Source of the DNA: an uncultured Clostridia bacterium
Lineage (GTDB): Bacteria > Bacillota > Clostridia > Christensenellales > UBA1242
Assembly: GCA_944350265.1 (NCBI GenBank)
Contig: CALVOG010000001.1
Span: 149,470-213,469 of the forward strand
Length of the DNA stretch: 64,000 nt
Reading direction: 5' to 3'
Made by a program: the position numbers and the translations under genes. Positions within the stretch are counted from its first letter, which is position 1. Each line of letters starts with the position of its first letter. Below are positions 19,151 through 57,603 of this stretch, piece after piece. The notes beneath the pieces are model-generated. The model searched no databases. It worked only from the letters and a program-made list of their open reading frames with translations, and was not told the DNA's origin.

Positions 19151-19190
19151 ATAAAATAAAAAATAGTCAGCAAGTTTTTTCCTGCCGACT
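19151..19190 (-). terminator. rho-independent terminator ending the phage-like operon
   Basis: Minus strand AGTCGGCAGG-aaaaaa-CTTGCTGACT (two G:U pairs) followed by a T-run, about 57 nt after the holin stop. Confidence 0.6.
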
Positions 19191-19246
19191 ATTTTTATTT
19201 TTTAATGTATATTTATGCATAAACTTTTTTAATTATACCACCATTA

Positions 19247-19834
19247 TTAATTGTCTTTATCGACCAATGTTTTATTATCCATATCATCTTGCGCATAGGA
19301 TTCTAAGCCGTCTTGCGAATTGCTGGAAGTTCTTTCGTTGTCCAAGCGTTTTTCAGCTTTTAACTTTTCCTCTTTCAAGTTTTCATTGCTCAAATTTTTA
19401 TCGTCAAAATTTGTATCATTCAAGTTTGCATTCAAGCTTTCATCTTCCAGGTTTGCCACATTCAAGTTTTTGTTGTTTGAGCCCTTATCTTCCAAATTTT
19501 CATTGCCCAGACTTTTATCATCCAAATTTGTATCATTTAAGTTATTATCGTTCAAACCAATGTCTAATTTGTTAATGTTCAAACTTTTATCTTCCAAGTT
19601 TTTATTTTCAAAGTTTTCATCATTCTCGTTTGAAGTGGCGCTGTTTTTGGTTTCTTTTGTTATAAAGCCCAAAACCACCAAAAGCCCCGCTATCGACATT
19701 ACAACATCCTCAACAATCTTATTGTCAATTTGAAAGTTAAAAATCTTGCCAATACAATTAATGAAAAGAACAAGGGCGCCAGAAAACGAAATCCAAAAAC
19801 TGTAACTTTTCATCCGCTCAAACAACTTCTTCAT
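19247..19834 (-). CDS. phage holin (Phage_holin_1/phi LC3-like N-terminus) fused to an NLxDx pentapeptide-like repeat tail
   Basis: The segment KSYSFWISFSGALVLFINCIGKIFNF...VMSIAGLLVVLGFI resembles LC3-type holins. About 20 five-residue NL(N/E/D)D(K/T/E) repeats follow. Start set to MKKLFERM (19834), which overlaps the upstream stop. Confidence 0.6.
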   Translation of the reverse strand: MKKLFERMKSYSFWISFSGALVLFINCIGKIFNFQIDNKIVEDVVMSIAGLLVVLGFITKETKNSATSNENDENFENKNLEDKSLNINKLDIGLNDNNLNDTNLDDKSLGNENLEDKGSNNKNLNVANLEDESLNANLNDTNFDDKNLSNENLKEEKLKAEKRLDNERTSSNSQDGLESYAQDDMDNKTLVDKDN

Positions 19835-20054
19835 CCTCAGCCTCATCACATCTAAGAAATTCTTTTATTTCACAAACCTCCTCCTTCACCTCTTTTAGAA
19901 TGTTTAAATTTTCGGTTAAATTTTCAATCGTTTCAATGTATTGCGCCTCTCGCCGTGAAGAGTCTTTAAGTTGATAGAGAAACAACCACACGAACAAAAT
20001 TGCAAACACGCCATTACTTATCACTATGCTTACTATCTCTTTCCAAAGTTCCAT
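19818..20054 (-). CDS. BhlA/UviB family holin-like protein
   Basis: One N-terminal TM segment (IVSIVISNGVFAILFVWLFLY) then a charged coiled tail (SSRREAQYIETIENLTENLNILKEVKEEV), typical of the BhlA family. 78 aa. Confidence 0.6.
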   Translation of the reverse strand: MELWKEIVSIVISNGVFAILFVWLFLYQLKDSSRREAQYIETIENLTENLNILKEVKEEVCEIKEFLRCDEAEDEEVV

Positions 20055-20151
20055 TTGCCACCTTCTAAAATTTGTTTTACCATAACACCATCTCCTTTTT
20101 TTAACAAAAAATCTTTCTTTTGAAATTTAAGATAGCATTTGTAAATCAATC

Positions 20152-21657
20152 TCACGAAATCACATCGAACACAATCATCGGTTTTGAAATATGGCAGTTT
20201 GCTTCATTTGTTTTAAAAACGAATTGAAAATTTTTGCCGTTAACAGAAACGCTCTTTCTTTCTTCCTTTTCGCTTCCGTCAAAGGAATAGGTTTTCGTTT
20301 CGACATCGCTGACAACCTCCACCTCGCACGCATACCTACTATTTAAGATTATCTCCTTAACCTTTTTATTCTTTCCTTTATATCCTAAGTCCGTGACAAA
20401 AGAACGCCAACTTTTTTCGGTGGAAATATCGAAGATTTTGCCACTACGCGTAAGTTCGCCAATCTTGCCAACATTCGCACCATTGAAGCACGCCACAACT
20501 TTGCTAAAATAAGGCGTGTCGACGGCGATAATTTTGTTGATATCCACCCCGCGCAAAACATCCACCTTGCCTGTTTCGATATCCACCTCAAAAAGCGCAT
20601 TGTTTTTAAAAGAGGACGCCTCGCATCCAACATCCTCGCCATCGCCAAAGTCGCATTTCGTTGCCAAATAATACTTCCCGTCCAAACAGCAAGCGGACGC
20701 ATTTTGGTTATCTAAGTTTTTGAAAAAGTGGTCATATTCCTCACAAATTTTCTTCACACTTGTGCCGTTAAACGAATACAGCCCCTCTCTGGTCACAAAA
20801 TAGATAACCTCGCCACAAACGCAAATGGATTTTTCGTAAATTTTCGAAGTGGAAAGATAGAGGTGCGTGAAAGAAAACTCGCCCTTTGTGGTATACGCCG
20901 AAATTTTGGTTATGCCGTTCTCGCGGAAGAGGTAAACATAGTCGTTGAACACCGCAAGTTTAGTGAACGCGCCCATCGAATCTAAGAACTCAATCACACT
21001 ACCCACATCGTCCGTCCACTCTCTCACGTCCAAATTTTGGTGATAGATAAGCTCGTTGCGATTGGTGTTCGTTATGCCAAACGCCATACCATAATGCACA
21101 ACAAGCGAAAGTAGTGGCGGAACATCAGCAAATCTTTGCGTTGTGTAGGCGCTCGAAAAGATAAGCCCATTAGAATCGAAAAATAAGAGACAATCATACT
21201 CGCCAATTCGATACGGAATGGTGGCGAGAATATTTTGAAAAAGAAGGCTGGACTTCGACAACGGCTCGCCATCAGCAACATCGATAAGAAGTAGGGTCCA
21301 AATTTGGTCGCGCTGGTCCTTAATCACCAAGTGGTAGTAATAGCAGTCGTCGTCGATATCCAAATACCTAAAATAGTCAATCGACCTAACCTCGGTTATC
21401 GTTTTTGAGGAAAGGTCGAAGGGATGCACATTTTCTAAGTCATCCTCGCTTGCTGGCACATTTAGAACTTTAAACCCAAGCCCCGTTTTAAGCGCGCCGT
21501 CAAGTGGTGAAAAATTATAAAAAGTTTTGCATTCGTTCGGCTTAGAGATTAAGTCGTCCTCATTAGAGACCACCCCTTCGCCAAAAACTGAAAAAGTGAT
21601 GTTTTTTTCCACAGTCTTTTTGTGCTTTTTAAGGTTTTTATAAAAAATCAAAACCAT
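20152..21657 (-). CDS. phage structural protein, beta-propeller-like (501 aa); sits where a podovirus tail hub/nozzle would be
   Basis: Start overlaps the upstream stop by 10 nt. Repeated YxF / YYLA / GLYSFNG strand-like motifs. No family recognised, so the role is inferred from gene order only. Confidence 0.3.
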   Translation of the reverse strand: MVLIFYKNLKKHKKTVEKNITFSVFGEGVVSNEDDLISKPNECKTFYNFSPLDGALKTGLGFKVLNVPASEDDLENVHPFDLSSKTITEVRSIDYFRYLDIDDDCYYYHLVIKDQRDQIWTLLLIDVADGEPLSKSSLLFQNILATIPYRIGEYDCLLFFDSNGLIFSSAYTTQRFADVPPLLSLVVHYGMAFGITNTNRNELIYHQNLDVREWTDDVGSVIEFLDSMGAFTKLAVFNDYVYLFRENGITKISAYTTKGEFSFTHLYLSTSKIYEKSICVCGEVIYFVTREGLYSFNGTSVKKICEEYDHFFKNLDNQNASACCLDGKYYLATKCDFGDGEDVGCEASSFKNNALFEVDIETGKVDVLRGVDINKIIAVDTPYFSKVVACFNGANVGKIGELTRSGKIFDISTEKSWRSFVTDLGYKGKNKKVKEIILNSRYACEVEVVSDVETKTYSFDGSEKEERKSVSVNGKNFQFVFKTNEANCHISKPMIVFDVIS

Positions 21658-22205
21658 CTCCGTTTAGGAAGGCGCAACTCGCTTTTCTTACGTGCAAGCA
21701 CGAACAAACTTTCCTTGAAGCGCTCCTCAAAGATTTCCGCGTCCTCGCCCAAGCCATCAAAAAGAAGATACTCGCTCGCCATTCCGTAGGCATAAATTCT
21801 TGCCGACAGCCCGCAGTTTAGTTCCACAGTGTCGCTAAGCGCAAGGTCGCCCGGCAAAAAGGAATAGGTGATTTTTTTAGCGTGACCGAACACCTCGATG
21901 TAGTTTGGATACGCCTTATATCGCACATTTTGCCCAAAACTTCCCTTAAGCGCAAAGATATTTATGACCTTTTTCGTCAAATTTGAATAGTTTAATATGG
22001 AATTTTTAACATCTATATTTTCAGTATGTAAAAAAGGGAGATAGTCAGATGCTATCTCTTGGTTGACAAGATTAAAACACCTGACTAATGTGTTCACCCG
22101 CTCATTCTCCCCGTCAGTCAAAGAATCGTTATTCTCCAACTTTGATGCGAGTTCCTTTTCGCCTATAAATAAGGCGGTGTAAATCACCAAATCTTTAACA
22201 ATCAT
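21648..22205 (-). CDS. phage structural protein (185 aa); sits where a head-tail adaptor would be
   Basis: Start set to MIVKDLV (22205), which has a GGAGG RBS and overlaps the stop of the 106-aa gene. The role is inferred from gene order. Confidence 0.3.
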   Translation of the reverse strand: MIVKDLVIYTALFIGEKELASKLENNDSLTDGENERVNTLVRCFNLVNQEIASDYLPFLHTENIDVKNSILNYSNLTKKVINIFALKGSFGQNVRYKAYPNYIEVFGHAKKITYSFLPGDLALSDTVELNCGLSARIYAYGMASEYLLFDGLGEDAEIFEERFKESLFVLARKKSELRLPKRRWF

Positions 22206-22515
22206 ACAATCTTGCCTCCGCTTCATTCAAAATTCGGTGACTCTTAACTTTAAGATTCCTCGCGTTTTCCTCTTCAATTTCCTTGAATAACTCATCCCTC
22301 TTCTCGCTCAGCGTTTTCTTAGTTAGAAAGAGCGTGCGCTCGTCGAGAGAGTCGAAGGGCAAAGTGAGGCAAAAGGTGTTATACTTCTGCGCTCTATTAT
22401 GAAGTTCGAAAACTTTACGCTCAATATTATAAACAACGAAGTAATCCTTATCGATTTCTTTTAGTCTTTTAACGATATCTAAGCAATCACTGTCAATTTC
22501 AAATGAATTTTTCAT
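22195..22515 (-). CDS. hypothetical phage-module protein (106 aa)
   Basis: Intact ORF, co-oriented and translationally coupled to the next gene. No family recognised. Confidence 0.4.
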   Translation of the reverse strand: MKNSFEIDSDCLDIVKRLKEIDKDYFVVYNIERKVFELHNRAQKYNTFCLTLPFDSLDERTLFLTKKTLSEKRDELFKEIEEENARNLKVKSHRILNEAEARLYDC

Positions 22516-22772
22516 ATTTTTTCCTTTTATTTAGTTAAGTTCGGCTAATTAAATTAGTTTTTGTGGTTAATGTTGGTAAATCTTATTAAAACTGCATCTT
22601 AGATAGGTTATTCAGTATTAAACTTACTTTTAGGTTACTATTATTAAGTTCTTCCTTTTCTAGTTTTGCTTTTTCCTGCTACTACTATGTTGCTCACTTT
22701 TATGTTTCATAAGGATAACCTTTCTTAAAGAAGCGCATTTTAATAAGAGCTTAATAGTTTTTTTCTATATAA

Positions 22773-23990
22773 TTAGGCGTCACTACCACTAGAGTCGTCG
22801 CTTGGTGGAGTCAAAGTTTTGGCGATTTGCATAATCTTACCCTGTCCGCAAGGTCTTTCGCAAAGAAGTTCGCAGTATTTAACAAGCGTTGCAGTGTAAG
22901 TTGCATATCCAGGATTTTGTCGCAAAATTCTGCCCGACTCATCTTCAAGCCACTTCCAATCACAAAGTTGATACATTGTGAAATCGTTGGTGTTAAGAAG
23001 ATACATAACACCTGACTTAACGTGCTTTTCGCCAACCACAGGAATACCGTTATAGGTTATCGTCTTATATCCACCCGCAAGTTCTGCAATGTCAACGTTA
23101 CGTCGATAAGCCGAAAGGTATTCTTGGTAAACCCTTTTCGTTCCAACGTCAGTTGCGATGTAGTTAATTCGTGAGCCAGATGTCATTTCCACGGCATCGA
23201 TACCTTCTTGGATAAGCGTGTCGCTGATGTAAACCTTTCCGCTATTCCTTTTGTATGGATTAAGCCACTTGTAGTCAGTCTTATTGAGCCCATAATAGGA
23301 ATTGATAGAGAAAAGCGCCTCAATACCCGTGATTTCCTTATCCTTGGAGTTTGGAATGTATGCCTTAGTGCCAGCGCCGATTTTATAAGATGAGAAGTTC
23401 GCTTTATCAAGGTAAACCTTTGCGTTCGCCTTGTCAACATACTCAACCATATACACCCCAGCGGCATCGCTGAATGTGCCGTCGTAACCGCGAAGTATTA
23501 ACGGCATTCCTTCAACCACATTGCCTGGAATATCCACAACCAAACTCTTTTCGCTTTCGTTTATCTCAGTTACTGAGAAAACTTCGCCTGAACCCATACC
23601 GTAAATCATTCTGCCAAGATTGAAGTTTCCTGCCTCAATAAGGCGTTGCATTTCGTCGTTTAAAAGGTTGACAAAGCTTGTGATGTTGTTGGAAGTCGCT
23701 CTAATTGCCTTGTCGGAAATTTCCAACTGTCCGTAAAGATTTTTAAGTTCCGCAACAAATTGAACATATTTTGTCGAACGCGGGTCTGGTAATTTACCAT
23801 CCTCAGCACCCGCAGCAAATCCGCCATTGATACCAACTGGCGCTGCCTTTCGAATTTCTTTGCCATAGATGTTGCTTGTGGAATGTTTAATCATTGAAAG
23901 AAGTGGGTTTGCCACCAAATTAAGTTGATTGGAAATAACGCCCAAATAGACATTTTTTAAGGCGTTTTCCGCACTTTGTAATGTTACCAT
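22773..23990 (-). CDS. phage major capsid protein (HK97-fold family)
   Basis: 405 aa, directly after the scaffold gene. Contains the capsid-family pattern KYVQFVAELKNLYGQLEISDKAIRATS...LLNDEMQRLIEAGNFNLGRMIYGMGSGE. Confidence 0.7.
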   Translation of the reverse strand: MVTLQSAENALKNVYLGVISNQLNLVANPLLSMIKHSTSNIYGKEIRKAAPVGINGGFAAGAEDGKLPDPRSTKYVQFVAELKNLYGQLEISDKAIRATSNNITSFVNLLNDEMQRLIEAGNFNLGRMIYGMGSGEVFSVTEINESEKSLVVDIPGNVVEGMPLILRGYDGTFSDAAGVYMVEYVDKANAKVYLDKANFSSYKIGAGTKAYIPNSKDKEITGIEALFSINSYYGLNKTDYKWLNPYKRNSGKVYISDTLIQEGIDAVEMTSGSRINYIATDVGTKRVYQEYLSAYRRNVDIAELAGGYKTITYNGIPVVGEKHVKSGVMYLLNTNDFTMYQLCDWKWLEDESGRILRQNPGYATYTATLVKYCELLCERPCGQGKIMQIAKTLTPPSDDSSGSDA

Positions 23991-24005
23991 TTTTTGCTCC
24001 TTTTG

Positions 24006-24719
24006 TTAGGAAAGTAAGTCAAAAAGAAAATTTTTCGCTTCCTCTAAGGTCGAAGGTTTTTGAGTGGCAACTTCTGCCACCCTGTTCCCCTTCGCCGATA
24101 TGATGATTGGTGACTTATTTTCCGCTAATTGATTTACATAGTTTTCAATCACTGCATTTTTGAGGTCATCATTGCTCAAAATGTAGTTTTTGACAGCCTC
24201 GTCACTTTTGTTGCCACGAATTTGGTTGAACACCATCTCCGCCCAAGCAAAAGAGAACGGGTCGTCCATTTTTTTTAGACTATCATCGTTTTTGACTTTT
24301 TCTTTGAGTTCTTCGCTATATTTTGTTGCCTCGCCGTTCGATAAGAGGAACTTTGAAAGTTTTTCGTCCAATTTTTCTTCATTTTCCTTATCTTCCAAAG
24401 CCTTGTCTCTTTCTAAGGCGGATAGTCTTTGGCACTTTTTTGTGAACTCTTTTTCGAGGTTGTTATATGCCTCCAAAAGCGCTTCCGCGTCCTTAAACTT
24501 ACCAACCGCATCCCGCGCTTCGGTTTTTAGTTTTTCCTCGTTTACCGCATCCCGCGCTTCGGTTTTTGCCTCTTCCTCGTTTTGGGAGTCCGCCGATTGT
24601 TCTTGTGCGCTTGGTGCGCTTTCCACCTCACTCACCAAATCAACATTCTTAGGCGATGCGCCATCCTCGTCGTCCAAGGTTAAATCTTCGAATTGTTCCC
24701 AATATTTTTCGTCGTCCAT
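24006..24719 (-). CDS. phage scaffolding protein
   Basis: Acidic, coiled-coil, 237 aa, between portal and capsid. DUF4355-like EALLEAYNNLEKEFTKK segment. Confidence 0.6.
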   Translation of the reverse strand: MDDEKYWEQFEDLTLDDEDGASPKNVDLVSEVESAPSAQEQSADSQNEEEAKTEARDAVNEEKLKTEARDAVGKFKDAEALLEAYNNLEKEFTKKCQRLSALERDKALEDKENEEKLDEKLSKFLLSNGEATKYSEELKEKVKNDDSLKKMDDPFSFAWAEMVFNQIRGNKSDEAVKNYILSNDDLKNAVIENYVNQLAENKSPIIISAKGNRVAEVATQKPSTLEEAKNFLFDLLS

Positions 24720-24720
24720 C

Positions 24721-26556
24721 TTATTCTCCTTCTTTTAAAAGTTTTTTGTGAGCCATAATATGCTCCAAAAAGTTATTTTCAATCTCGCTGGTTGCGTTCT
24801 TTTCGTATTCGCCAGAAAGCATAAACGCAATATGCTCATCGATGTGAAGTTTGTTATCGTCAATCACTTTAACATCCACCTTTTCGCCGTCTAACAGTGC
24901 AAGGTTTTCGTTGTCCGCCCGACGAGTGTGAAGAGCCTGCAAGTTTTTGGCGCTCTCCCAATTACCAAAGCCCAAAATTTCCAAAATCTTCCCTTTAACG
25001 CTTTCAGTTAACTTGCCGTTCTCGTCATAGAGAATGCCCTTATCTAAGAGCGTATAAATCATATTTCGCCTTTGCGTTAAGGTTTCAGCGCCGTCACTTT
25101 CGGTTTCAAACTGAACGTCGTCACTTGAAATATCGCTCGACTTAAAGTAAAAAATCTCTGGCGAACCATTGTCTCCAACAATTTTAAGTAGACGCGGAAT
25201 GTTGGCAAACTGCTTATACAGCCTTAAAATTTGCTTACCAATACTTTTAATCGCACTCTTTATGCTGTCGGTTGTGAAGGAAAGCCGAGTTTGGTTTTCG
25301 TCTAAAAGTAATTCAAGTGCCACACCGCTCACCGACGCTGAAATGGTGGTTAAATCGCCCATTTCCGACATTCCGCACAAAGTGGTAAATTCCTCCAAAA
25401 GTTTTTCCTCTTCCTTTTCAAATGCGGTTGGCAAATTTTCGTTTGCAAGGTATTTTGGCGCGTCCGCACCTTGGCGATACACCAAAATTTTCCCAGGCGC
25501 TAAACCTTCATCCTCCAAATTTTCCACATCCACACTGCCATCCTCAACCGCCAAAACTCCCAAAGTGAGCCTATTAAGAAATTCGTGCTTGCGATTTTTA
25601 ACCGCGTTATATGCCCGTTGAAGAGGTATCATTCTTTCAATCAAACTTCTTCCCCAAAACGAGCCAACCTCGTCACAACAAACCTGCTTCACAAATGGGA
25701 AATCTCGCTTGCCGTCGATGCCGTTGACGTATGGCAATTCACCGTCAAAAACAAGCTCGTCGCCTGCAACGATGATAAGCCGTCCATTCGGCGCGTCCTC
25801 ACTTGGACGGATGTATTTTTCGATAACGAGGTTCGCATCCCTCTTCACGCTCGCATTAAGTTTGGTGCCAATGCCGTTATATCCAAGCCCGCCTGTTGAA
25901 TACGAGGCGTCGAGCGAGAACACGTTGATGTCCTTCCCTTCCACACTCACGCCATACATCTTTTCAATCTCTTTGGCGGAGTAGACTTTCGCGTGAATTA
26001 CGCTTTGGCAGTCCTCCAAACTTTCCGCCGTGACGCTATCGGGGTAGATTTCAAACGGCGAGCAAACGGCAATGTCCACATCGCCCGCTTTAATCTTCCG
26101 TCCGCTGTCCTCAATCGCCACAACCTGCCCTAGGTTTGGGTTCCAAAGCACCTTATAGAAGCAAGTTCCGCAAAGTTCGCTCCACTTTGTGGCTTGGTTA
26201 ATCTTCTTGGAAAGGCTATGCTTTGCCGACACCGAATCCAAAATTTTTTTGGAAAGTTTTGCCGTGTAAACATCCTTTTCATCGTTCGTCGCTGGCACAA
26301 CGTAAAGTTTCGGTCTTATCGCTGAAAGTTTGGAAAGGCGTAAATCAACCTTTGGTGCGATATGGTTGAAAACCTCTCGCTCTTGCCAAAAATACTGCCT
26401 GTCCATATCCTCCACAATACCACCAAAACCAATCGTCGAAAATTGGTTGCCCATATAGAAGTCCATATTCAACTTCCACTGCGTTTCAAACGGTTTTCGC
26501 TCGATTGCGCGACGCTCAAAATCTTCTAAAACCTCTTTAACCAAATCACTTTTCAT
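24721..26556 (-). CDS. phage portal protein
   Basis: About 611 aa, in the position upstream of scaffold and capsid, with a portal-like N-terminal segment (QWKLNMDFYMGNQF). Start set to MKSDLVKEV (26556), which has a GGAGG RBS. Confidence 0.7.
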   Translation of the reverse strand: MKSDLVKEVLEDFERRAIERKPFETQWKLNMDFYMGNQFSTIGFGGIVEDMDRQYFWQEREVFNHIAPKVDLRLSKLSAIRPKLYVVPATNDEKDVYTAKLSKKILDSVSAKHSLSKKINQATKWSELCGTCFYKVLWNPNLGQVVAIEDSGRKIKAGDVDIAVCSPFEIYPDSVTAESLEDCQSVIHAKVYSAKEIEKMYGVSVEGKDINVFSLDASYSTGGLGYNGIGTKLNASVKRDANLVIEKYIRPSEDAPNGRLIIVAGDELVFDGELPYVNGIDGKRDFPFVKQVCCDEVGSFWGRSLIERMIPLQRAYNAVKNRKHEFLNRLTLGVLAVEDGSVDVENLEDEGLAPGKILVYRQGADAPKYLANENLPTAFEKEEEKLLEEFTTLCGMSEMGDLTTISASVSGVALELLLDENQTRLSFTTDSIKSAIKSIGKQILRLYKQFANIPRLLKIVGDNGSPEIFYFKSSDISSDDVQFETESDGAETLTQRRNMIYTLLDKGILYDENGKLTESVKGKILEILGFGNWESAKNLQALHTRRADNENLALLDGEKVDVKVIDDNKLHIDEHIAFMLSGEYEKNATSEIENNFLEHIMAHKKLLKEGE

Positions 26557-26773
26557 TTTTCCTCCTTGATATCGCTCTGTTGGGTTTAAAGTGCGACTCC
26601 ACTGCCTTTGGCACGAAAAGTTTGGCAAGTTCTTCATAGAGCGATTTCAAACACTCTTCGCAAAACGCAAACTCGTTTCGAATAAACCCGCGAGTTGAGA
26701 TGTAATATTTTGCAAGGTGTCGACAACCACTTGAATCGCACTTAACAATATGGCGACATTTTTCAACTTTCAC
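26546..26773 (-). CDS. small Cys-rich (zinc-finger-like) protein, 75 aa
   Basis: Cys residues at positions 6, 12, 17, 38 and 41 (CRHIVKCDSSGC ... CEEC). It occupies the slot where a large terminase is expected and overlaps both neighbours. Confidence 0.45.
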   Translation of the reverse strand: MKVEKCRHIVKCDSSGCRHLAKYYISTRGFIRNEFAFCEECLKSLYEELAKLFVPKAVESHFKPNRAISRRKNEK

Positions 26774-27038
26774 TTTTTTCCTCCTTTAATAATTTCAAAA
26801 GTCGCTTTTTCTCTTTTTTAAGTTCGGTAAGAGTCATATGTGAAAGTTCGTCGTCAAAAACGCCCTCCTTTTCCATTAAAATCTTAACGGCGCTGATATC
26901 TGGCGGGTTATATTTCTTCGTCACCTTGCGCCTATTTAAAACTTCGTTGCCGTCTTTGTCGAGTGTGTATTCTTCCACCACCTCGTCGCTGGAAAAGCCG
27001 AGTGCCTTTTTTAAAAGTGCCTTTCTTATCTCCTCCAC
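26763..27038 (-). CDS. small terminase-like / phage DNA-packaging accessory protein (91 aa, GTG start)
   Basis: GGAGG then 4 nt then GTG. The segment KALGFSSDEVVEEYTLDKDGNEV..RKVTKKYNPPDISAVKILME resembles the C-terminal part of Firmicutes phage TerS proteins (pattern ...K.V.PD..A.IFWLKNR). Confidence 0.35.
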   Translation of the reverse strand: MEEIRKALLKKALGFSSDEVVEEYTLDKDGNEVLNRRKVTKKYNPPDISAVKILMEKEGVFDDELSHMTLTELKKEKKRLLKLLKEEKSES

Positions 27039-27068
27039 ACAACCTCCTTTTTTGCAACTTTCGCTTAA

Positions 27069-27097
27069 AGTTTAAAAGCAAAACTTCGCTATTTCAA
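27069..27097 (-). promoter_or_regulatory. candidate sigma-A promoter of the phage-like operon
   Basis: Minus strand TTGAAA, 17-nt spacer, TAAACT, about 30 nt upstream of the GTG start. Confidence 0.35.
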
Positions 27098-27273
27098 GTT
27101 TTTATGTCACAAACCACAACTTGCGGTGTTAAAATTTTATCAATGCGTAGTTTTCTTCAACACATTAGTTTCGCTTATATGGCACACTCTTTTAATTTTT
27201 ATAACAAAAATAGATATAGCCTTTCGGCACAATTTTTTCTAAGGATAATATGATGTTATTGTAGAGGCAAAAG

Positions 27274-28041
27274 ATGAATGAGATTTTGAAGTTCGAAAAC
27301 GTAAACTATTTTTACCAAACTAAGGATGATGAAATTTTCGCAATCGATAATTTGAGTTTCAACGTGCTTGAAAATGAGTTCGTTTCTATTGTTGGTCCCA
27401 GCGGTTGTGGCAAAACCACAATTCTTTCCCTAATCGCTGGGCTTCTTTCGCCAAGTTCTGGCAAAGTTATGCTTGACGGCTCCACCAAAATCGACAGGCG
27501 AAAAATTGGATATATGTTCCAACGAGATATGCTCTTCGATTGGCGCTCGGTTTGGAAAAACATCACCCTTGGGCTGGAACTTAAAAAGGAAGACGTGAAG
27601 AAAAAACTTGAACTTGCCGAAGAACTCCTCAAAAAATACAACCTCTACAATTTCAAAAACAAAAAACCATCCTCGCTGAGTGGTGGTATGCGACAGCGCG
27701 TGGCACTCATTCGAACCCTTGTTTTGGAGCCTAGACTGCTTCTACTTGACGAGCCGTTTTCGGCACTTGACTACCAAACTCGCCTTAACCTTTGCGACGA
27801 TGTTTACGACATCATAAAAAAGGAAAAAAAGACGGCAATTTTGGTGACGCACGACATTGCCGAAGCGATTTCAATGAGTGATAAAATAATCGTCCTATCC
27901 TCACGCCCAGCACGCGTCAAGGACGAAATTACCTTAAACCTAGCGGGCAAAACGCCACTCAAAAAGCGAGATGATGACTCTTTCCGTGGATACTTTGAAA
28001 AGATTTGGGGAGAACTTACAAATGAAGAAAAAAATAACTAA
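27274..28041 (+). CDS. ABC transporter ATP-binding protein (NitT/TauT nitrate/sulfonate/taurine family)
   Basis: Walker A GPSGCGKTT, signature LSGGMRQRV, Walker B LLLDEPFSALD, H-loop VTHD. Confidence 0.85.
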   Translation: MNEILKFENVNYFYQTKDDEIFAIDNLSFNVLENEFVSIVGPSGCGKTTILSLIAGLLSPSSGKVMLDGSTKIDRRKIGYMFQRDMLFDWRSVWKNITLGLELKKEDVKKKLELAEELLKKYNLYNFKNKKPSSLSGGMRQRVALIRTLVLEPRLLLLDEPFSALDYQTRLNLCDDVYDIIKKEKKTAILVTHDIAEAISMSDKIIVLSSRPARVKDEITLNLAGKTPLKKRDDDSFRGYFEKIWGELTNEEKNN

Positions 28042-28825
28042 TTTTTCATTAGCACACAAAAAATATGTAAAAAAACTGAAAAAAGATAAGTTTTTGGTGA
28101 TTTTTTTTAGAATTTTTGTGTTAGTGGCGTTTTTGGGCTTGTGGGAACTTCTAACTTACACCAAAGCGCTCGACCCATTTTTCGTGTCCAGCCCGTCAAG
28201 AATTATAAAACAACTTGAAAGTATGATTTCTTCTGGCACGCTTTTTCATCACACCTTTGTGACGCTCTATGAAACCCTCATCGGCTTTCTTATTGCAACC
28301 GTCTTAGGCTACCTCATCGCGGTCGGGCTTTGGTGGAATGAAAAAGTGCGAAAGGTGTTTGAGCCATACATCGTCGTTCTCAATTCTCTGCCAAAAATCG
28401 CCTTAGGACCGATTATCATTCTTTGGGTGGGTGCTGGCACAAACGCGATAATTTTGATGTGCGTTTTAATATGTATCGTCATCACCACAATGAGTATGCT
28501 TTCGGCGTTTTTAAATTGCGACGAAGGGAAAATTTTACTTCTTAAAAGTATGAACGCCAACAAATTTCAAATTCTTTGGAAACTCATCCTCCCCGCATCA
28601 ATGAAAGACTTTATCTCGGTTTTAAAAATCAATGTTGGAATGAGTTTTGTGGGTAGCATTATGGGTGAATACTTAACAAGTAAGGCAGGGCTTGGCTATC
28701 TTATCGTCTACGGCGGACAAATTTTCAAAATCGACCTCGTGATGAGCGCCACCTTCATTCTTTGCATTCTCGCCTATCTTCTATACGCCATCGTCAGCCT
28801 TATTGAAAAGAAGTATCGAAACTAG
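28022..28825 (+). CDS. ABC transporter permease (NitT/TauT family, BPD-type)
   Basis: Six TM segments. Start set to MKKKITNF (28022), which overlaps the ATPase stop by 20 nt. No binding-protein gene is adjacent. Confidence 0.75.
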   Translation: MKKKITNFSLAHKKYVKKLKKDKFLVIFFRIFVLVAFLGLWELLTYTKALDPFFVSSPSRIIKQLESMISSGTLFHHTFVTLYETLIGFLIATVLGYLIAVGLWWNEKVRKVFEPYIVVLNSLPKIALGPIIILWVGAGTNAIILMCVLICIVITTMSMLSAFLNCDEGKILLLKSMNANKFQILWKLILPASMKDFISVLKINVGMSFVGSIMGEYLTSKAGLGYLIVYGGQIFKIDLVMSATFILCILAYLLYAIVSLIEKKYRN

Positions 28826-28846
28826 GAGTTAAAACAGCAATAGCTA

Positions 28847-29162
28847 ATGTGGTATCATTAGAATTTTGTAAGCCGTTCTTCGACGAGATTCTTCGCTGGC
28901 GTCAGCGTTGCTTCCTTGCTCAGAATGACAAATAACTGCTTTGCCTTCGGTATAAGCGACACTGCAAACACATGACACTTTAGTAAGTGATAGCGTAGTT
29001 GTAACATAACTCATAACGTAAGGCGACACTGCTAAATGTCATTCTGAGCGAAGCGAAGAATCTCGTCGTAGCACCCGCCCGCGTATGTCTATTCTATCCT
29101 CTTGTTGCTAGTAAAACACGGCTAAACCCAAAACGCACCTCACATCCAAGCGCGCTTGGTCA
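28847..29162. repeat. mosaic intergenic repeat cluster L3 (B-rev, Y-rev, X, long Z)
   Basis: B-rev at 28847-28930, reversed Y fragment at 28925-28995, X at 29037-29071, long Z ending in the palindrome ccaagcgcgcttgg at 29146-29159. Confidence 0.9.
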
Positions 29163-29424
29163 TAAAAAAATACTTAGCGTAAAGATAAACGCTAAGCATT
29201 TTTTAGAATTGTTAAAATGATGTTTTTTAGAGTTTGTATAACGCAACTGACGCTAAGCATCACAATATTCACTCAAAATTCGAACCCCACTAAATCCTCA
29301 ATAAGGTTTGCATTACAAAAATAATTTCACAACACTCACTAAAATTCGAACCTACACTAAATCATTTAACAGCCAAATGACACTTATAATAAATCTCGCG
29401 CTAGGCTAAATCTCGCAACTCACA

Positions 29425-30066
29425 CTAAGCCTCAGCCTCTTCTTGCTGAGTAAATTCAACCTCATAGGTGATGTGAACAAAGAAGTTTTTAACAACCTCG
29501 TCGTTGTCGTTTAAAAAAGCGTAATAAAAATATCCGTCGTTAGTGTCCGCGCTTCCCTGACAACCCCACTCGCCGTCGACGCCCAAAAGCCACTCAACAT
29601 CCATAACCACGTAGCCGTTTTTAACATTTTCGATTGCGCCTTCAAGCGTTTTATTTTTGCTGACAATTTCAAACTTCGTTGCCTCGTCAGGTATTAAAAG
29701 TTGAAGTTCGAAAAAGTCGGTGTGGTAACTTGCCGTTGTGTCGTCGTAAATTTTGTTTCCATCGGCGTCCATTGGCGTGGAATTTTTTTCGCAGTCCGCA
29801 ATTAAAACACTGCCCGCCACCTTAACATTAAACTCTGTCAACTCGCCATATTCACCAAATAACTGCACTCTTTCTGCCGAATCGTTTTCCGCCAAAAAAG
29901 ATTTTTTTGCACTGGTCTCAACCGTAGCTGTCACACCAGGAACATTCATAACGCCCTGCACGCGCACCTCGTCAGGCTCACCGCCACCGCACGCCGTCAA
30001 AAGGAAGAGCGCTGGAATTAAAAATAGCGCAAGCAAAATTGCCGAAAATACTTTTGATTTTGTCAT
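29425..30066 (-). CDS. lipoprotein of unknown function (213 aa)
   Basis: Signal peptide plus lipobox LFLLTAC. No family recognised. Confidence 0.6.
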   Translation of the reverse strand: MTKSKVFSAILLALFLIPALFLLTACGGGEPDEVRVQGVMNVPGVTATVETSAKKSFLAENDSAERVQLFGEYGELTEFNVKVAGSVLIADCEKNSTPMDADGNKIYDDTTASYHTDFFELQLLIPDEATKFEIVSKNKTLEGAIENVKNGYVVMDVEWLLGVDGEWGCQGSADTNDGYFYYAFLNDNDEVVKNFFVHITYEVEFTQQEEAEA

Positions 30067-30120
30067 AATTTTTACCTCATAGAGTAATATACCACACTTT
30101 CAAGTTATTTGCAAACAATT

Positions 30121-30333
30121 TTCAAAGATTAAAAATTAATTTCATTTTCGTTTCAAGTTTTAGCAATTAATTTTGTTCTCATTTCAAGATTACAGATTAA
30201 TTTCGCTTTCATTTCAAGGCTATAGATTAATTTTGATTTTATTTCAAAGTTTATCAATTAATTTTGATTTCATTTCAAGATTACAGATTAATTTCGCTTT
30301 CATTTCAAGGTTTATCAATTTATTTTGGTTTTT
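30121..30333. repeat. about 30-bp tandem array, 7 units
   Basis: Units tttcaag(a/g)(t/c)ta(c/t)agattaattt(c/t)g(c/a)tttca. Units 3 and 6 are identical (30182-30211 and 30273-30302), which gives a 91-bp higher-order period. Confidence 0.9.
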
Positions 30334-31306
30334 CAATAATCTTTTTCTTTTTAAAGGAAAATAAAAAGAAGAAAAGTTCGCATATGCCAAGCACCGACGC
30401 GAGCGGATAGAGGTTGGAAACAATAAGTGAAAACCCAATTTCGCTTATAAGAAACGGCAAAATTATGGCAAAAAATGCTCCCCAAAAATCATTTTTACTA
30501 AGCCCGTCAACTGACGATTTAATCGTTAAACAAAGCGAAAAAAGTGTGGTTATGCATCCAATCAAAATCACCGAATAGCAAAGGAGAAAGAAGAGAAAAT
30601 TGTTTTGGCAGAGGAACAAAAAAGGCATATCAGCGTCATAACTGTTGGCGTGCGAGATTAGCACAAAATTTGCAAAAATTAGAAACACCAAAAGCAAAAA
30701 CGACGTTAAAAAACTCACCCAAAACACTTGCTTTTTGTTTAACCCCACACCTGCGCGACTGACAATGAATGTGCTTGTTGAAAAGTTTAGCGCAACATAG
30801 AGCGGGCTGTAAAAACAACCGAGTGGCGCCATACTTAACTCTGAAATTTCCACTTGCTGAAAGGACGCATAAAAAAGCACAATGAGAAAGACAAAAACAC
30901 AAATCGGCATAAGAAAAAAAGTCACTTTTTCGAGCGCATTAATTCCTTTAAGCGTGATGAAGAATGTGATGAGAAGAAGTCCCGCGCAAAGCAAAACATA
31001 CATAACTGAATTCGAAAATTTAAACAAACTTTTAAGCCCCGCAAACATTGACGAGGTGAAAACTATTGAAATAAAAATCAAAATTATGTTGACAATTTTA
31101 AGTTTCTCCAATCGCTCTATCACAAATTTCCCCTTAGATAAAAAGAGGTAAAAAAGGAGGAAAAACAGCGCCGACGCTAAGAAGATATATAAATAGGAAA
31201 GCGCGCCAAACCGCGTGAAAAAAACAAGAATTTCCTTGCCACTTGAAAAGCCCGACCCAACGATGGTGCCGAACAATAAAAACACAGTTAAAAGCACCTT
31301 GCGCAT
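30320..31306 (-). CDS. YkvI-like multi-pass membrane protein (328 aa)
   Basis: N-terminal FGTIVGSGFSSGKEILVFF resembles the YkvI/transporter family. About 10 TM segments. Confidence 0.5.
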   Translation of the reverse strand: MRKVLLTVFLLFGTIVGSGFSSGKEILVFFTRFGALSYLYIFLASALFFLLFYLFLSKGKFVIERLEKLKIVNIILIFISIVFTSSMFAGLKSLFKFSNSVMYVLLCAGLLLITFFITLKGINALEKVTFFLMPICVFVFLIVLFYASFQQVEISELSMAPLGCFYSPLYVALNFSTSTFIVSRAGVGLNKKQVFWVSFLTSFLLLVFLIFANFVLISHANSYDADMPFLFLCQNNFLFFLLCYSVILIGCITTLFSLCLTIKSSVDGLSKNDFWGAFFAIILPFLISEIGFSLIVSNLYPLASVLGICELFFFLFSFKKKKIIEKPK

Positions 31307-31450
31307 AAAAAATGTTTATGTTACAACCGCGAAAAAAAGACGCCTTACTTAAAACAAAAGCTCTATTAATAATCCAAGTATGCATATTCTTAAAATACAT
31401 ATTGAAATAAATTCTTTTTAAGAGGTAATTGTAAAATCTTTGAAAGCAAT

Positions 31451-31530
31451 ATCTACGACGAGATTCTTCGCTGGCGTCGCATTGCTTCTTGCTCAGAATG
31501 ACATTTAGCGGTATCACCGCGGTATAAGTT
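31451..31530. repeat. mosaic repeat L4 (single B-rev copy)
   Basis: Sequence: ctacgacgagattcttcgctggcgtcgcattgcttcttgctcagaatgacatttagcggtatcaccgcggtataag. Confidence 0.85.
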
Positions 31531-31609
31531 AAATTACAATCACAACTATTTACTTCCCTAAAACACAGCCAAAAGTCGAAGTGTATTTTTGAATGTTTAC
31601 GAATTAAAT

Positions 31610-32203
31610 TCAAATGAGGCTATAGATTTCGTTTCGATGTTTATAAGCATACCTTATGCACCTTTGATGAGCGTCGTCAACGCTTTGTGTTCCGTGCGTT
31701 TTCGAACCTTTAAAATGTAAGCAAAGATGCCCGCCGAGGTCATTTTCGCCCTTGTTCTCGCCGTGAGGAAAGCCAGCAAGCGACGCGCAAAAGAAAACAT
31801 TTTCGCCATATTCAACAAATACGGGGCGACGCTCCCACGACGGCACTCCGTCATAGATTTCAGCAAGAAGCATCGTGTTATTTTGGTCAATCGTTTCAAT
31901 GTCAGCGTGATTTTTACCGCCCACCCGCTCAACAAAAATGCAAATACCCGACTTAATATCAATAATACGAAAGGGCGTAAAATTCTTCAAAATTGCGTTT
32001 GCCGTTTCCCAATCAATGCACAGAACTTTGATTTCATCGTCAAATTCCAGCGCAATTTCGTTCTCTCTTAAGTTATTAATTTCAATTGCATTTTTTTCGG
32101 TTATGTTGGTGTAGTTCGAAAAAATAGGATAAGGAAATAGACAGGCAAACAACCCTGCCGATAGCGAAAAAACAATGATATAAATAAGCAATTTTGTGCG
32201 CAT
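31610..32203 (-). CDS. hypothetical exported/membrane-anchored protein (197 aa)
   Basis: N-terminal TM/signal segment. No family recognised. Confidence 0.45.
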   Translation of the reverse strand: MRTKLLIYIIVFSLSAGLFACLFPYPIFSNYTNITEKNAIEINNLRENEIALEFDDEIKVLCIDWETANAILKNFTPFRIIDIKSGICIFVERVGGKNHADIETIDQNNTMLLAEIYDGVPSWERRPVFVEYGENVFFCASLAGFPHGENKGENDLGGHLCLHFKGSKTHGTQSVDDAHQRCIRYAYKHRNEIYSLI

Positions 32204-56575: not shown

Positions 56576-57603
56576 TAAATTCGCACTTTTTTTGCCACAT
56601 TGCGCCTTAAATCGTCGCTTATCGCTGCATAGTGCTTCTTGGTTGTGTTGACGTCCTTATGCCCCAAAATATCCGCAACGATATAGATATCGTTAGTTTC
56701 TCGGTAAAGATTCGTGCCGAAAGTGGAGCGCAATTTATGTGGTGTGATTTTTTTCAGTGGTGTGCTTTCATAGGCAAACTTTCGCACAATATTTTCCACC
56801 GCGCGCGTGCAAATGCGCCTGTTTTGAAGCGACAAAAACATCGCCTTTTCGTTTTCGCCGATAGGCAAAGTTTCGCGCAGTGAAAGCCACTCCATAAGCG
56901 CATATTTAACGTCGTTTGGATAATATAAAATGGTTTGATTTCCGCCCTTTCTTGTCACCTTGAAAGCGTTTTGCTGAAAGTCGAAATCTTCCACATTAAG
57001 CCCCACAAGTTCGCTGACACGTATGCCCGTGCCAAGGAAAAGCGTGACGATGGCGTTGTCGCGCACCTTCGTGTTTTTGTTGTAATTTCGCTGGCGTGCG
57101 GAAAAGGTCGATGGCTCCCAAACCGCGTCTAAAAGTTTTTCCACCTCGTCGCCCTCAAGCCTAACAATACCCTTTGTGTGGAGTTTTGGCGTTGGCACCT
57201 TGCTGACCACATTTTTGGAAATAAGGTCGTGGTTAAAGAGGTAGCGGAAAAAACTGCGAATGCTGGCGAGTTTGCGCGCCTTGCCGTTTTCGGTGTTGCG
57301 AAAAACCTTGTCGCCCACCGTGTAGTAACTTAAATACGAGAGGTAACTTTCAATATGACGCGCCTCCAAACTGTCAAGGTCTTTAAGCGTTATGTTCGCC
57401 TTGTCCTTATTTAAAACATAGCGCGAAATATAGTCATAAAAAATCGACAGGTCCATCGCATAATTTAATCGCGTAAGCGAAGAAGTTGAAAGTTCCATAC
57501 CCGTGAAAAAATCATAGCAATATTCGGGCAAATCGGCAAGATAGGAGCCGATTTTTTGCATATTATCCAAATCTCTTTTCTCAAAATACGACAGCGTTTT
57601 CAT
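56545..57603 (-). CDS. tyrosine-type site-specific recombinase (XerC/XerD/phage integrase family)
   Basis: Catalytic residues in GTGIRVSELVGL (R), TPHKLRSTFGT (HxxR) and LGHKDVNTTKKHYA (H..Y). SAM-like N-terminal domain. Start set to MKTLSYFEK (57603). Confidence 0.8.
   Translation of the reverse strand: MKTLSYFEKRDLDNMQKIGSYLADLPEYCYDFFTGMELSTSSLTRLNYAMDLSIFYDYISRYVLNKDKANITLKDLDSLEARHIESYLSYLSYYTVGDKVFRNTENGKARKLASIRSFFRYLFNHDLISKNVVSKVPTPKLHTKGIVRLEGDEVEKLLDAVWEPSTFSARQRNYNKNTKVRDNAIVTLFLGTGIRVSELVGLNVEDFDFQQNAFKVTRKGGNQTILYYPNDVKYALMEWLSLRETLPIGENEKAMFLSLQNRRICTRAVENIVRKFAYESTPLKKITPHKLRSTFGTNLYRETNDIYIVADILGHKDVNTTKKHYAAISDDLRRNVAKKVRIYDEDQAHLDD

Follow-up and report, generated by a model that had tools for sequence, protein, structure and literature searches.

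Genes of a putative podovirus-derived, gene transfer agent-like particle system with a separately located large terminase gene in uncultured gut Clostridia

We analyzed a block of phage-like genes on a 64,000-nucleotide stretch of genomic DNA, referred to here as the window, from a chicken-gut bacterium of the UBA1242/Candidatus Caccovivens group (contig CALVOG010000001.1, positions 149,470 to 213,469). A first-pass annotation, made from the sequence alone, had described the block as an intact-looking phage head module with holins, lacking a large terminase subunit (TerL), tail, integrase and endolysin. Ten co-oriented open reading frames (ORFs) were indeed present on the minus strand, with polA and an ABC transporter as their neighbors, and the first of them, encoding a protein of 91 amino acids (aa), is preceded by GGAGG and starts with GTG. 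The suspected sigma-A-type promoter (TTGAAA-17-TAAACT, 27097-27069) was recovered by a consensus scan and in the sequence itself, and the terminator proved to be a 16-bp stem at the operon end (Table 1). Portal, adaptor and second holin are likely to start at 26556, 22205 and 19834, respectively. The G+C content across the block varies from 0.29 to 0.45, with its minimum over the repeat-rich holin end, in a genome of 0.40. Direct repeats flanking the block did not occur above chance, in line with the reported lack of att-like repeats, and no integrase gene adjoins the block within the window. The nearest tyrosine recombinase gene lies ~30 kb off, at window positions ~56617-57162 (C1:206086-206631, minus strand), beside a repeat-rich region and unlinked to phage-like genes.

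The encoded proteins were assigned through matches to Pfam, PHROG and NCBIfam models and, where these left a protein unknown, through structures predicted with AF2 from alignments of 38-39 orthologues and compared by Foldseek. Family matches supported the portal, the BhlA-type holin and the further holin of the first-pass annotation and identified the capsid protein, for which the match to NCBIfam capsid_maj_Podo exceeded the model cut-off. Because of this family membership, the capsid protein would be expected to have the HK97 fold. By sequence, the 75-, 237-, 106-, 185/192- and 501-aa proteins had no family match, and searches of the PDB with profiles of the nozzle, adaptor, 106-aa, 91-aa and cysteine (Cys) proteins gave nothing significant. 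Adaptor and nozzle were recognized through structure prediction only. The best Foldseek matches of the adaptor model were the adaptors of Pa223 (TM 0.64), SU10, KHP30, GP4 and T7 (gp11), and the nozzle model matched the Pa223 tail (9nwi_Y; E 4e-19, TM 0.70), followed by VP1, GP4, P22 and T7 gp12; the Pa223 tail was thus the best match of both. Judged by these models, the 185-aa protein is the predicted podovirus tail adaptor and the 501-aa protein the predicted tail nozzle. Since both are encoded in the block, the module would comprise a head plus a minimal podovirus tail, so that the head module of the first-pass annotation stands, but its lack of a tail does not. The parallel it had drawn with the podovirus adaptor and hub genes (P22 gp4/gp10, T7 gp11/gp12) agrees with the predicted structures, and the overall order is that of a podovirus: P22-type portal, podovirus-family capsid, gp11-like adaptor, gp12-like nozzle.

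The remaining small proteins were less readily placed. The 91-aa protein, conserved in 91 loci and adjoining TerL on its downstream side in relatives with a contiguous cluster, is possibly a small-terminase-like packaging factor without a DNA-binding domain; the TerS-like label it had received is backed by the weak PHROG match in Table 1, but not by Pfam (no match, and hence no TerS family, in 38 members) or by the PDB (38-sequence profile), and the role is a guess. The four-cysteine protein matched no Pfam or PHROG family and nothing in the PDB. For the 106-aa protein, which had neither a family match nor a PDB match by sequence, a head-completion or neck protein is our best guess. The scaffold-like protein had no family match and no protease is present; its gene holds an internal 39-nt tandem duplication, 90% identical, at 24505-24582. 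The second holin has a variable, Asn/Asp-rich C-terminal tail, and only its N-terminal membrane part is conserved in relatives. Its C-terminal half consists of 15-nt repeats (five residues, Asn/Asp/Leu-rich; 19356-19630), which are not conserved in relatives. As first reported, there is no endolysin among the ten ORFs, none of which has a lysin-family match (lysins were not sought in the remainder of the genome), and neither the window nor the TerL locus described below encodes tail fibers, spikes or internal ejection proteins.

Table 1. Features of the particle operon in window coordinates, with median pairwise Nei-Gojobori ratios of nonsynonymous to synonymous substitution rates (dN/dS)
Feature	Position	Strand	Evidence or remark	dN/dS
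Operon promoter	27069..27109	-	TGACAT 27109-27104; -35 TTGAAA 27097-27092; -10 TAAACT 27074-27069	
Leader motif GAAAGTTGC	27054..27062	-	Just 5' of GGAGG ribosome-binding site; same place in most related loci	
91-aa basic/acidic helical protein	26763..27038	-	phrog_309 TerS 3.3e-5, weak	0.12
75-aa four-cysteine, zinc-ribbon-like protein	26546..26773	-	C12, C17, C38 and C41 invariant in 37 sequences	0.071
Portal, P22/SU10 type	24721..26556	-	PF16510 P22_portal 1.7e-19; phrog_156 5e-36	0.045
Acidic scaffolding-like protein, 237 aa	24006..24719	-	Position between portal and capsid; acidic composition	0.26
Major capsid protein, 405 aa	22773..23990	-	NF033394 capsid_maj_Podo 1.9e-65; phrog_14242 7.6e-39	0.044
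106-aa conserved protein	22195..22515	-	Comes after the capsid gene even in distant relatives	0.079
Predicted tail adaptor, T7 gp11/tail tubular protein A type, 185 aa	21648..22205	-	AF2 pLDDT 86.5	0.116
Predicted tail nozzle, beta-propeller, T7 gp12/P22 gp10 type, 501 aa	20152..21657	-	AF2 pLDDT 86.7, pTM 0.87	0.077
BhlA-family holin	19818..20054	-	PF10960 1.4e-14; conserved in 87 loci	0.106
Second holin	19247..19834	-	Phage_holin_1 1e-4; phrog_297 5.7e-8	
Intrinsic terminator, operon end	19159..19196	-	16-bp stem, then T run	

The promoter region itself is conserved. Its upstream element TGACAT has the genus consensus TTTGGCAG, and 34 of 37 related loci, all of the split type introduced below, have the pattern TGGCAS-N6-TTGA, ~18 nt, TATAAT ahead of their first gene. 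The order is an A-rich tract, TTTGGCAG, six bases, TTGA.., ~18 bases, TATAAT, GAAAGTTGC and the ribosome-binding site. A sigma-54 promoter was considered and rejected, because the TGGCAS-N6-TTG spacing is one base too long for it and a normal TATAAT box lies downstream; we therefore read the region as a sigma-A-type promoter with an upstream element.

TerL is absent from the window, as had been reported, and a search of the whole genome (1.12 Mb, 95% complete, 18 contigs) located one intact gene on another contig. This single Terminase_6N gene (C7:61457-62908) encodes 483 aa with ATPase and nuclease domains. Its locus is conserved and separate, and adaptor and nozzle lie inside the module, so that the scenario of TerL and tail genes hidden just beyond a misassembled junction does not hold. 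Orthologues of TerL with 65-77% identity were present in 34 of 36 congeners, and the Walker A, Walker B and nuclease aspartate residues were invariant over 24 orthologues, which shows an intact active site. No PF03354-type terminase was detected in the genome, nor any second terminase with the two Pfam families tried. The nearest cultured phage is the same for TerL, portal and capsid, namely Microbacterium phage Shocker. An SH3-domain membrane protein is divergently transcribed from TerL, and next to its gene lies that of a sigma-70-region-4 protein, which also matches phage transcription-regulator PHROGs, is conserved beside TerL and is a probable regulator of the system. The SH3-domain protein (C7:60352-61389; L003:11156-12193, minus strand), which is secreted or membrane-anchored, keeps its place immediately upstream of TerL in different genera and families. 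It may be part of the system, with a role in cell-wall binding, immunity or as a receptor. A link with sporulation was rejected, as TerL adjoins spoIVA in this genome but not in relatives.

Comparison with related genomes revealed two arrangements. Other genera of the family, and further families within the order, have a single contiguous cluster of ~11-12 kb with the order sigma-like gene, SH3 gene (opposite strand), TerL, 91-aa gene, Cys protein, portal, scaffold, capsid, 106-aa gene, adaptor and nozzle, then BhlA and holin. Between nozzle and BhlA there can be a 344-aa protein and, after it, a DUF7934 coiled-coil protein, for both of which tblastn and hidden Markov model searches found no counterpart in the genome studied here. 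The contiguous clusters are bordered by ordinary host genes, such as murG and pgsA, and in the relatives examined they carried no integrase, replication or att features. The same gene order occurs on 64 contigs listed as viral in IMG/VR. In the genus of the window the cluster is split: the 91-aa gene is always the first of the operon and adjoins the ABC transporter back to back, while TerL lies 9-150 kb off or on another contig. In the portal tree, the split loci group together as a single clade with support 100. Genome G003 carries, between TerL and the 91-aa gene, the host genes that occupy 27274-32203 in the window, an arrangement that looks like a first step of the separation. The split probably arose in this way, with host genes first coming to part TerL from the 91-aa gene and the two halves moving further apart later. 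Relatives of the locus did not show a complete prophage in decay, which the first-pass annotation had named as a refuting finding, but the same compact cluster with TerL attached.

Some loci depart from these two forms. In genus g107 of family f80, a capsid homologue is followed by a 106-aa homologue (L121:9516-11087 and L122:9630-11181, in G158 and G317). The capsid homologue was present in 11 of 11 sampled genomes of this genus, and the two loci examined had no portal or TerL match within 10 kb; they may represent a more reduced or scattered derivative of the same system. Another genus of the window's own family (G405) has two tandem intact capsid genes (L128:8035-10370), 43% and 40% identical to that of the window, in an otherwise standard contiguous cluster. 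A 47.9-kb IMG/VR contig (L184) encodes a capsid with 37% identity, a larger terminase and, after the capsid, nine more ORFs of up to 880 aa. It resembles a more complete phage from this capsid lineage and is possibly a living relative of the ancestor.

Each of the 36 congeneric species genomes, which at 0.7-1.3 Mb include some of the smallest known from Clostridia, had one intact capsid gene. Within the order, 194 of 401 genomes and 72 of 170 genera had the gene, nearly always as a single copy without stop codons; a first sample of other families contained it in 10 of 24, and across the class 28 of 400 genomes carried it. The GTDB species-representative genomes hold at least 587 stretches that encode a relative. 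Identity to the window's copy was correlated between PolA and TerL (Spearman 0.84, n=38) and, once one subgroup had been set aside, between PolA and capsid (Spearman 0.78). Furthermore, the portal and capsid trees were congruent. For this subgroup, the G008 group, in which the capsid is only 45% identical and PolA 64%, horizontal replacement of the capsid gene was considered and rejected: its capsid branches from the tree where expected, but on a long stem, so that the divergence is one of accelerated rate. In this subgroup (L022, L023 and L024, from G008, G003 and G001) capsid and scaffold evolved much faster on the stem (branch length 0.94), and portal, nozzle, TerL and PolA were not accelerated. 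The comparison of dN/dS across related genomes, which the first-pass annotation had recommended, revealed strong purifying selection: for most genes the values in Table 1 are 0.04-0.12, against 0.057 for the flanking ABC genes, and the scaffold gene (0.26) is the fastest of the set. The genes are thus inherited vertically, as a single copy and under strong purifying selection. In genomes of less than 1 Mb the cluster takes up ~1% of the coding capacity.

RNA contigs of one chicken-gut metatranscriptome covered positions 19278-26865 almost fully. Their depth was 46 over the 106-aa, capsid and scaffold genes, the capsid contig being the deepest of the operon, 23 over the holin, 21 over nozzle and adaptor and 10 over the portal; in the same metatranscriptome, it was ~0 for polA and 1-3 for the ABC genes. 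This showed that the operon is transcribed in vivo in this one run. Very abundant RNA near TerL turned out to be RNase P RNA, an abundance that is expected of RNA.

Together, these findings make it likely that the operon supplies the structural and lysis genes of a podovirus-derived particle system that the host has domesticated and that resembles a gene transfer agent (GTA). That it is a host-owned, functional particle system we hold with high confidence, and that it actually transfers genes with moderate confidence. Head, tail and packaging genes of caudovirus descent reside in the host chromosome, where they are passed on vertically under purifying selection; replication, integration and excision genes are missing from both loci and from the contiguous relatives, and TerL stands apart from the head genes. 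Of the three interpretations offered by the first-pass annotation, that of a domesticated particle-forming or GTA-like system gains support from particle genes that are conserved, constrained, expressed and split. In such a system, portal, scaffold and capsid would build a DNA-holding head, and the adaptor, of a 12-fold type, would form a stub tail on the portal together with the beta-propeller nozzle. TerL, supplied from the second locus, would package DNA into the heads by the headful mechanism, and this DNA would probably be that of the host, since there are no replication, integration or excision genes and the two halves lie too far apart for one particle. The two holins would then open the membrane, the particles would be released through lysis of a subpopulation, and they would deliver their DNA to related cells.

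Several observations weigh against this GTA-like interpretation. In this lineage the system is known from its genes and from RNA contigs, not from particles, packaged DNA or observed transfer. No tail fiber, receptor-binding protein or endolysin was found (lysins were not sought across the whole genome), and the DUF7934 coiled-coil protein of the relatives is absent, so that no part could be assigned to adsorption or DNA delivery. The 91-aa protein is only weakly assigned as TerS. Finally, the TerL locus is nearly absent from the RNA contigs, with traces only, and the RNA evidence as a whole comes from a single run of assembled contigs, in which depth is a poor measure of expression and DNA may be included; it therefore speaks to presence and a rough contrast only.

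Conservation, selection and expression show that the particle genes are useful, not that they deliver DNA. One alternative is a domesticated particle with a function other than transfer, such as a PBSX-like killer of competing strains, a programmed-lysis or DNA-release device or a decoy against related phages. Because no fiber, ejection protein or endolysin is recognizable in this genus, such a function keeps some probability, and PHROGs places BhlA-type proteins in its category of bacteriocin production or immunity. The same doubt has been raised for FpGTA, a podovirus-like, GTA-like element of Faecalibacterium prausnitzii (Nat Commun 2026, PMC12946183). We nevertheless regard this explanation as unlikely: a strongly conserved TerL, catalytically intact by its residues, a portal and a nozzle channel would be costly if DNA packaging and exit were irrelevant, and PBSX-like killing needs a contractile tail, which is absent here.

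The two other interpretations of the first-pass annotation fared worse, and we consider decay and satellite readings effectively excluded. Capsid-forming phage satellites (capsid-forming phage-inducible chromosomal islands, cf-PICIs) that steal only tails are known, and the fiber and endolysin genes were not found here, as would suit a satellite-like element with its own heads that depends on a helper phage for fibers, a lysis enzyme or induction. Such an element is nonetheless quite improbable, since neither the locus studied here nor that of any relative examined has integrase, replication, excision or att features, the chromosomal position is fixed and descent is vertical. Moreover, its genes are distributed over two loci and could therefore not be mobilized as a unit, and the search of the 1.1-Mb genome with two Pfam families gave no second terminase. 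More generally, the integrase, att site, replication module, repressor and mobility by which phage-inducible chromosomal islands are recognized were not seen. That the block is the remnant of a defective prophage, kept by chance or in slow decay, is highly improbable. Taken alone, the block does look like a truncated prophage, and contigs with the same cluster are listed as viral (the 64 in IMG/VR), but disrupted genes, patchy presence and relaxed selection were not observed. Instead, an intact single copy in 36 of 36 congeners, the near-absence of stop codons in ~200 genomes, dN/dS values equal to those of neighboring housekeeping genes, the conserved promoter and expression in vivo all oppose decay. 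For the proposed remnant under purifying selection this means that the strong selection was confirmed, but that the gene set is not that of a remnant.

What the GTA-like interpretation implies reaches beyond this genome. GTAs are well documented almost only in Alphaproteobacteria, and the first podovirus-like example from a gut commensal dates from 2026. The element described here is a new, second lineage of podovirus-derived GTA-like elements, in this genus with TerL split off. An unrelated capsid lineage has thus been domesticated in like manner and kept in hundreds of uncultured gut Clostridia species. Exchange of DNA by way of particles, or some other function of the particles, may therefore be common and strongly selected in gut Firmicutes. 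More tentatively, and as a joint proposal that we would rather doubt than assert, the cluster would be a second, independently domesticated podovirus-derived GTA distinct from FpGTA; it would have been fixed early in about half of the Christensenellales, would underlie the packaging of ~4-6 kb of host DNA of Christensenellaceae in human fecal virus-like particles, and would be kept as the main recombination route in a ~1-Mb, probably partner-dependent Caccovivens-like lineage despite genome reduction. The cluster in any case provides a concrete gene set to hold against the GTA-like packaging signals seen in Christensenellales, and a compact particle of ~12 genes might be adapted for DNA delivery into bacteria that are not yet transformable.

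We found no published description of this element in the literature and compared it with known systems. The lytic podoviruses of Actinobacteria around Microbacterium phage Shocker (identity of TerL 28%, portal 23%, capsid 28%) have terminase, two small ORFs, portal, an ORF in the scaffold position and capsid in the same order. Shocker, however, is a full 45-kb phage with a DNA polymerase, primase-helicase, endolysins and a long tail module. PBSX of Bacillus subtilis is likewise a chromosomal defective-phage element of a Firmicute, with a sigma-like late regulator (Xpf) and holin-based release. It differs in being a myovirus-like, contiguous, killing particle of ~28 kb that occurs in few species, and the PBSX terminase model gives the present TerL no better than E 1e-5, well short of its cut-off. 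PBSX packages host DNA, which would also be the probable cargo of the present element. RcGTA of the Alphaproteobacteria shares chromosomally fixed structural genes, vertical inheritance, purifying selection, a multilocus "genome", the lack of replication and integration genes, and lysis genes for release. In contrast to the podovirus-like, scaffold-based element described here, which has a sigma-like factor next to TerL, RcGTA is siphovirus-like (tape measure, tail tube, fibers), has a prohead protease and is under CtrA/GafA control. There is no sequence relation to RcGTA beyond shared folds, and when the adaptor model was searched by fold, the RcGTA neck came 32nd or lower (E>0.3).

The closest described counterpart is FpGTA. 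Its operon I (10.5 kb) encodes TerS, TerL, portal, a Prp-like protein, capsid, nozzle and a TolA-like protein, and operon II (5.5 kb), 125 kb away, encodes fibers, a receptor-binding protein, holin and endolysin; the particles measure 40 nm, look tailless and package ~8.5 kb of DNA (PMC12946183). The same study reported GTA-like packaging of ~4-6 kb fragments in metagenome-assembled genomes (MAGs) of Christensenellaceae, without naming the responsible genes, and the fragments packaged by QANA01 sp019420265 and the HGM11616 MAG measured 6.3 kb and 4.1 kb (PMC12946183). Our comparison was made via family membership and the N4-type clusters of other Clostridia, not with named FpGTA proteins. The two elements do not share a capsid family: the FpGTA capsid (RCH50849.1) is annotated as N4-gp56 family, and the capsid described here belongs to capsid_maj_Podo (NF033394). 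At E<=1e-10, the N4-gp56 model TIGR04387 hit neither the genome studied here nor any other that was sampled from the order, but it matched 75 of 400 other Clostridia genomes, where the clusters around N4-type capsids show only weak nozzle similarity to the present element. One such capsid-nozzle block (L131:5288-11208, in G337) has no adjoining portal or TerL, and split layouts may be common in the N4-gp56-type lineage too.

Gene order differs as well. FpGTA has TerS, TerL, portal, Prp-like protein and capsid, whereas the contiguous relatives have TerL, 91-aa gene, Cys protein, portal, acidic scaffold and capsid; the small protein thus lies downstream of TerL here and upstream of it in FpGTA, and an acidic scaffold takes the place of the Prp-like protein. 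The division of the genes is also different, with TerL parted from the head genes here and the fiber and lysis genes set apart in FpGTA, whose holin is in the second operon, while the holins described here are inside the head operon. A second operon like that of FpGTA was not found, as neither locus has a fiber or lysin gene next to it (the genome was not scanned for every lysin family). Particles and packaging have been demonstrated for FpGTA, and the present element is known from genes and RNA contigs. What the two have in common is nevertheless extensive. Each is a set of ~10 kb on the chromosome of gut Clostridia and includes TerL, portal, a protein in the scaffold position, capsid, small proteins and a podovirus-type nozzle, that of FpGTA having been annotated from PDB 8eap. 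Both have a putative small terminase without a DNA-binding domain, both lack replication and integration genes, both are near-ubiquitous in the host genus, and in both the genes are distributed over two loci. We conclude that the element would work like FpGTA but stands outside its family.

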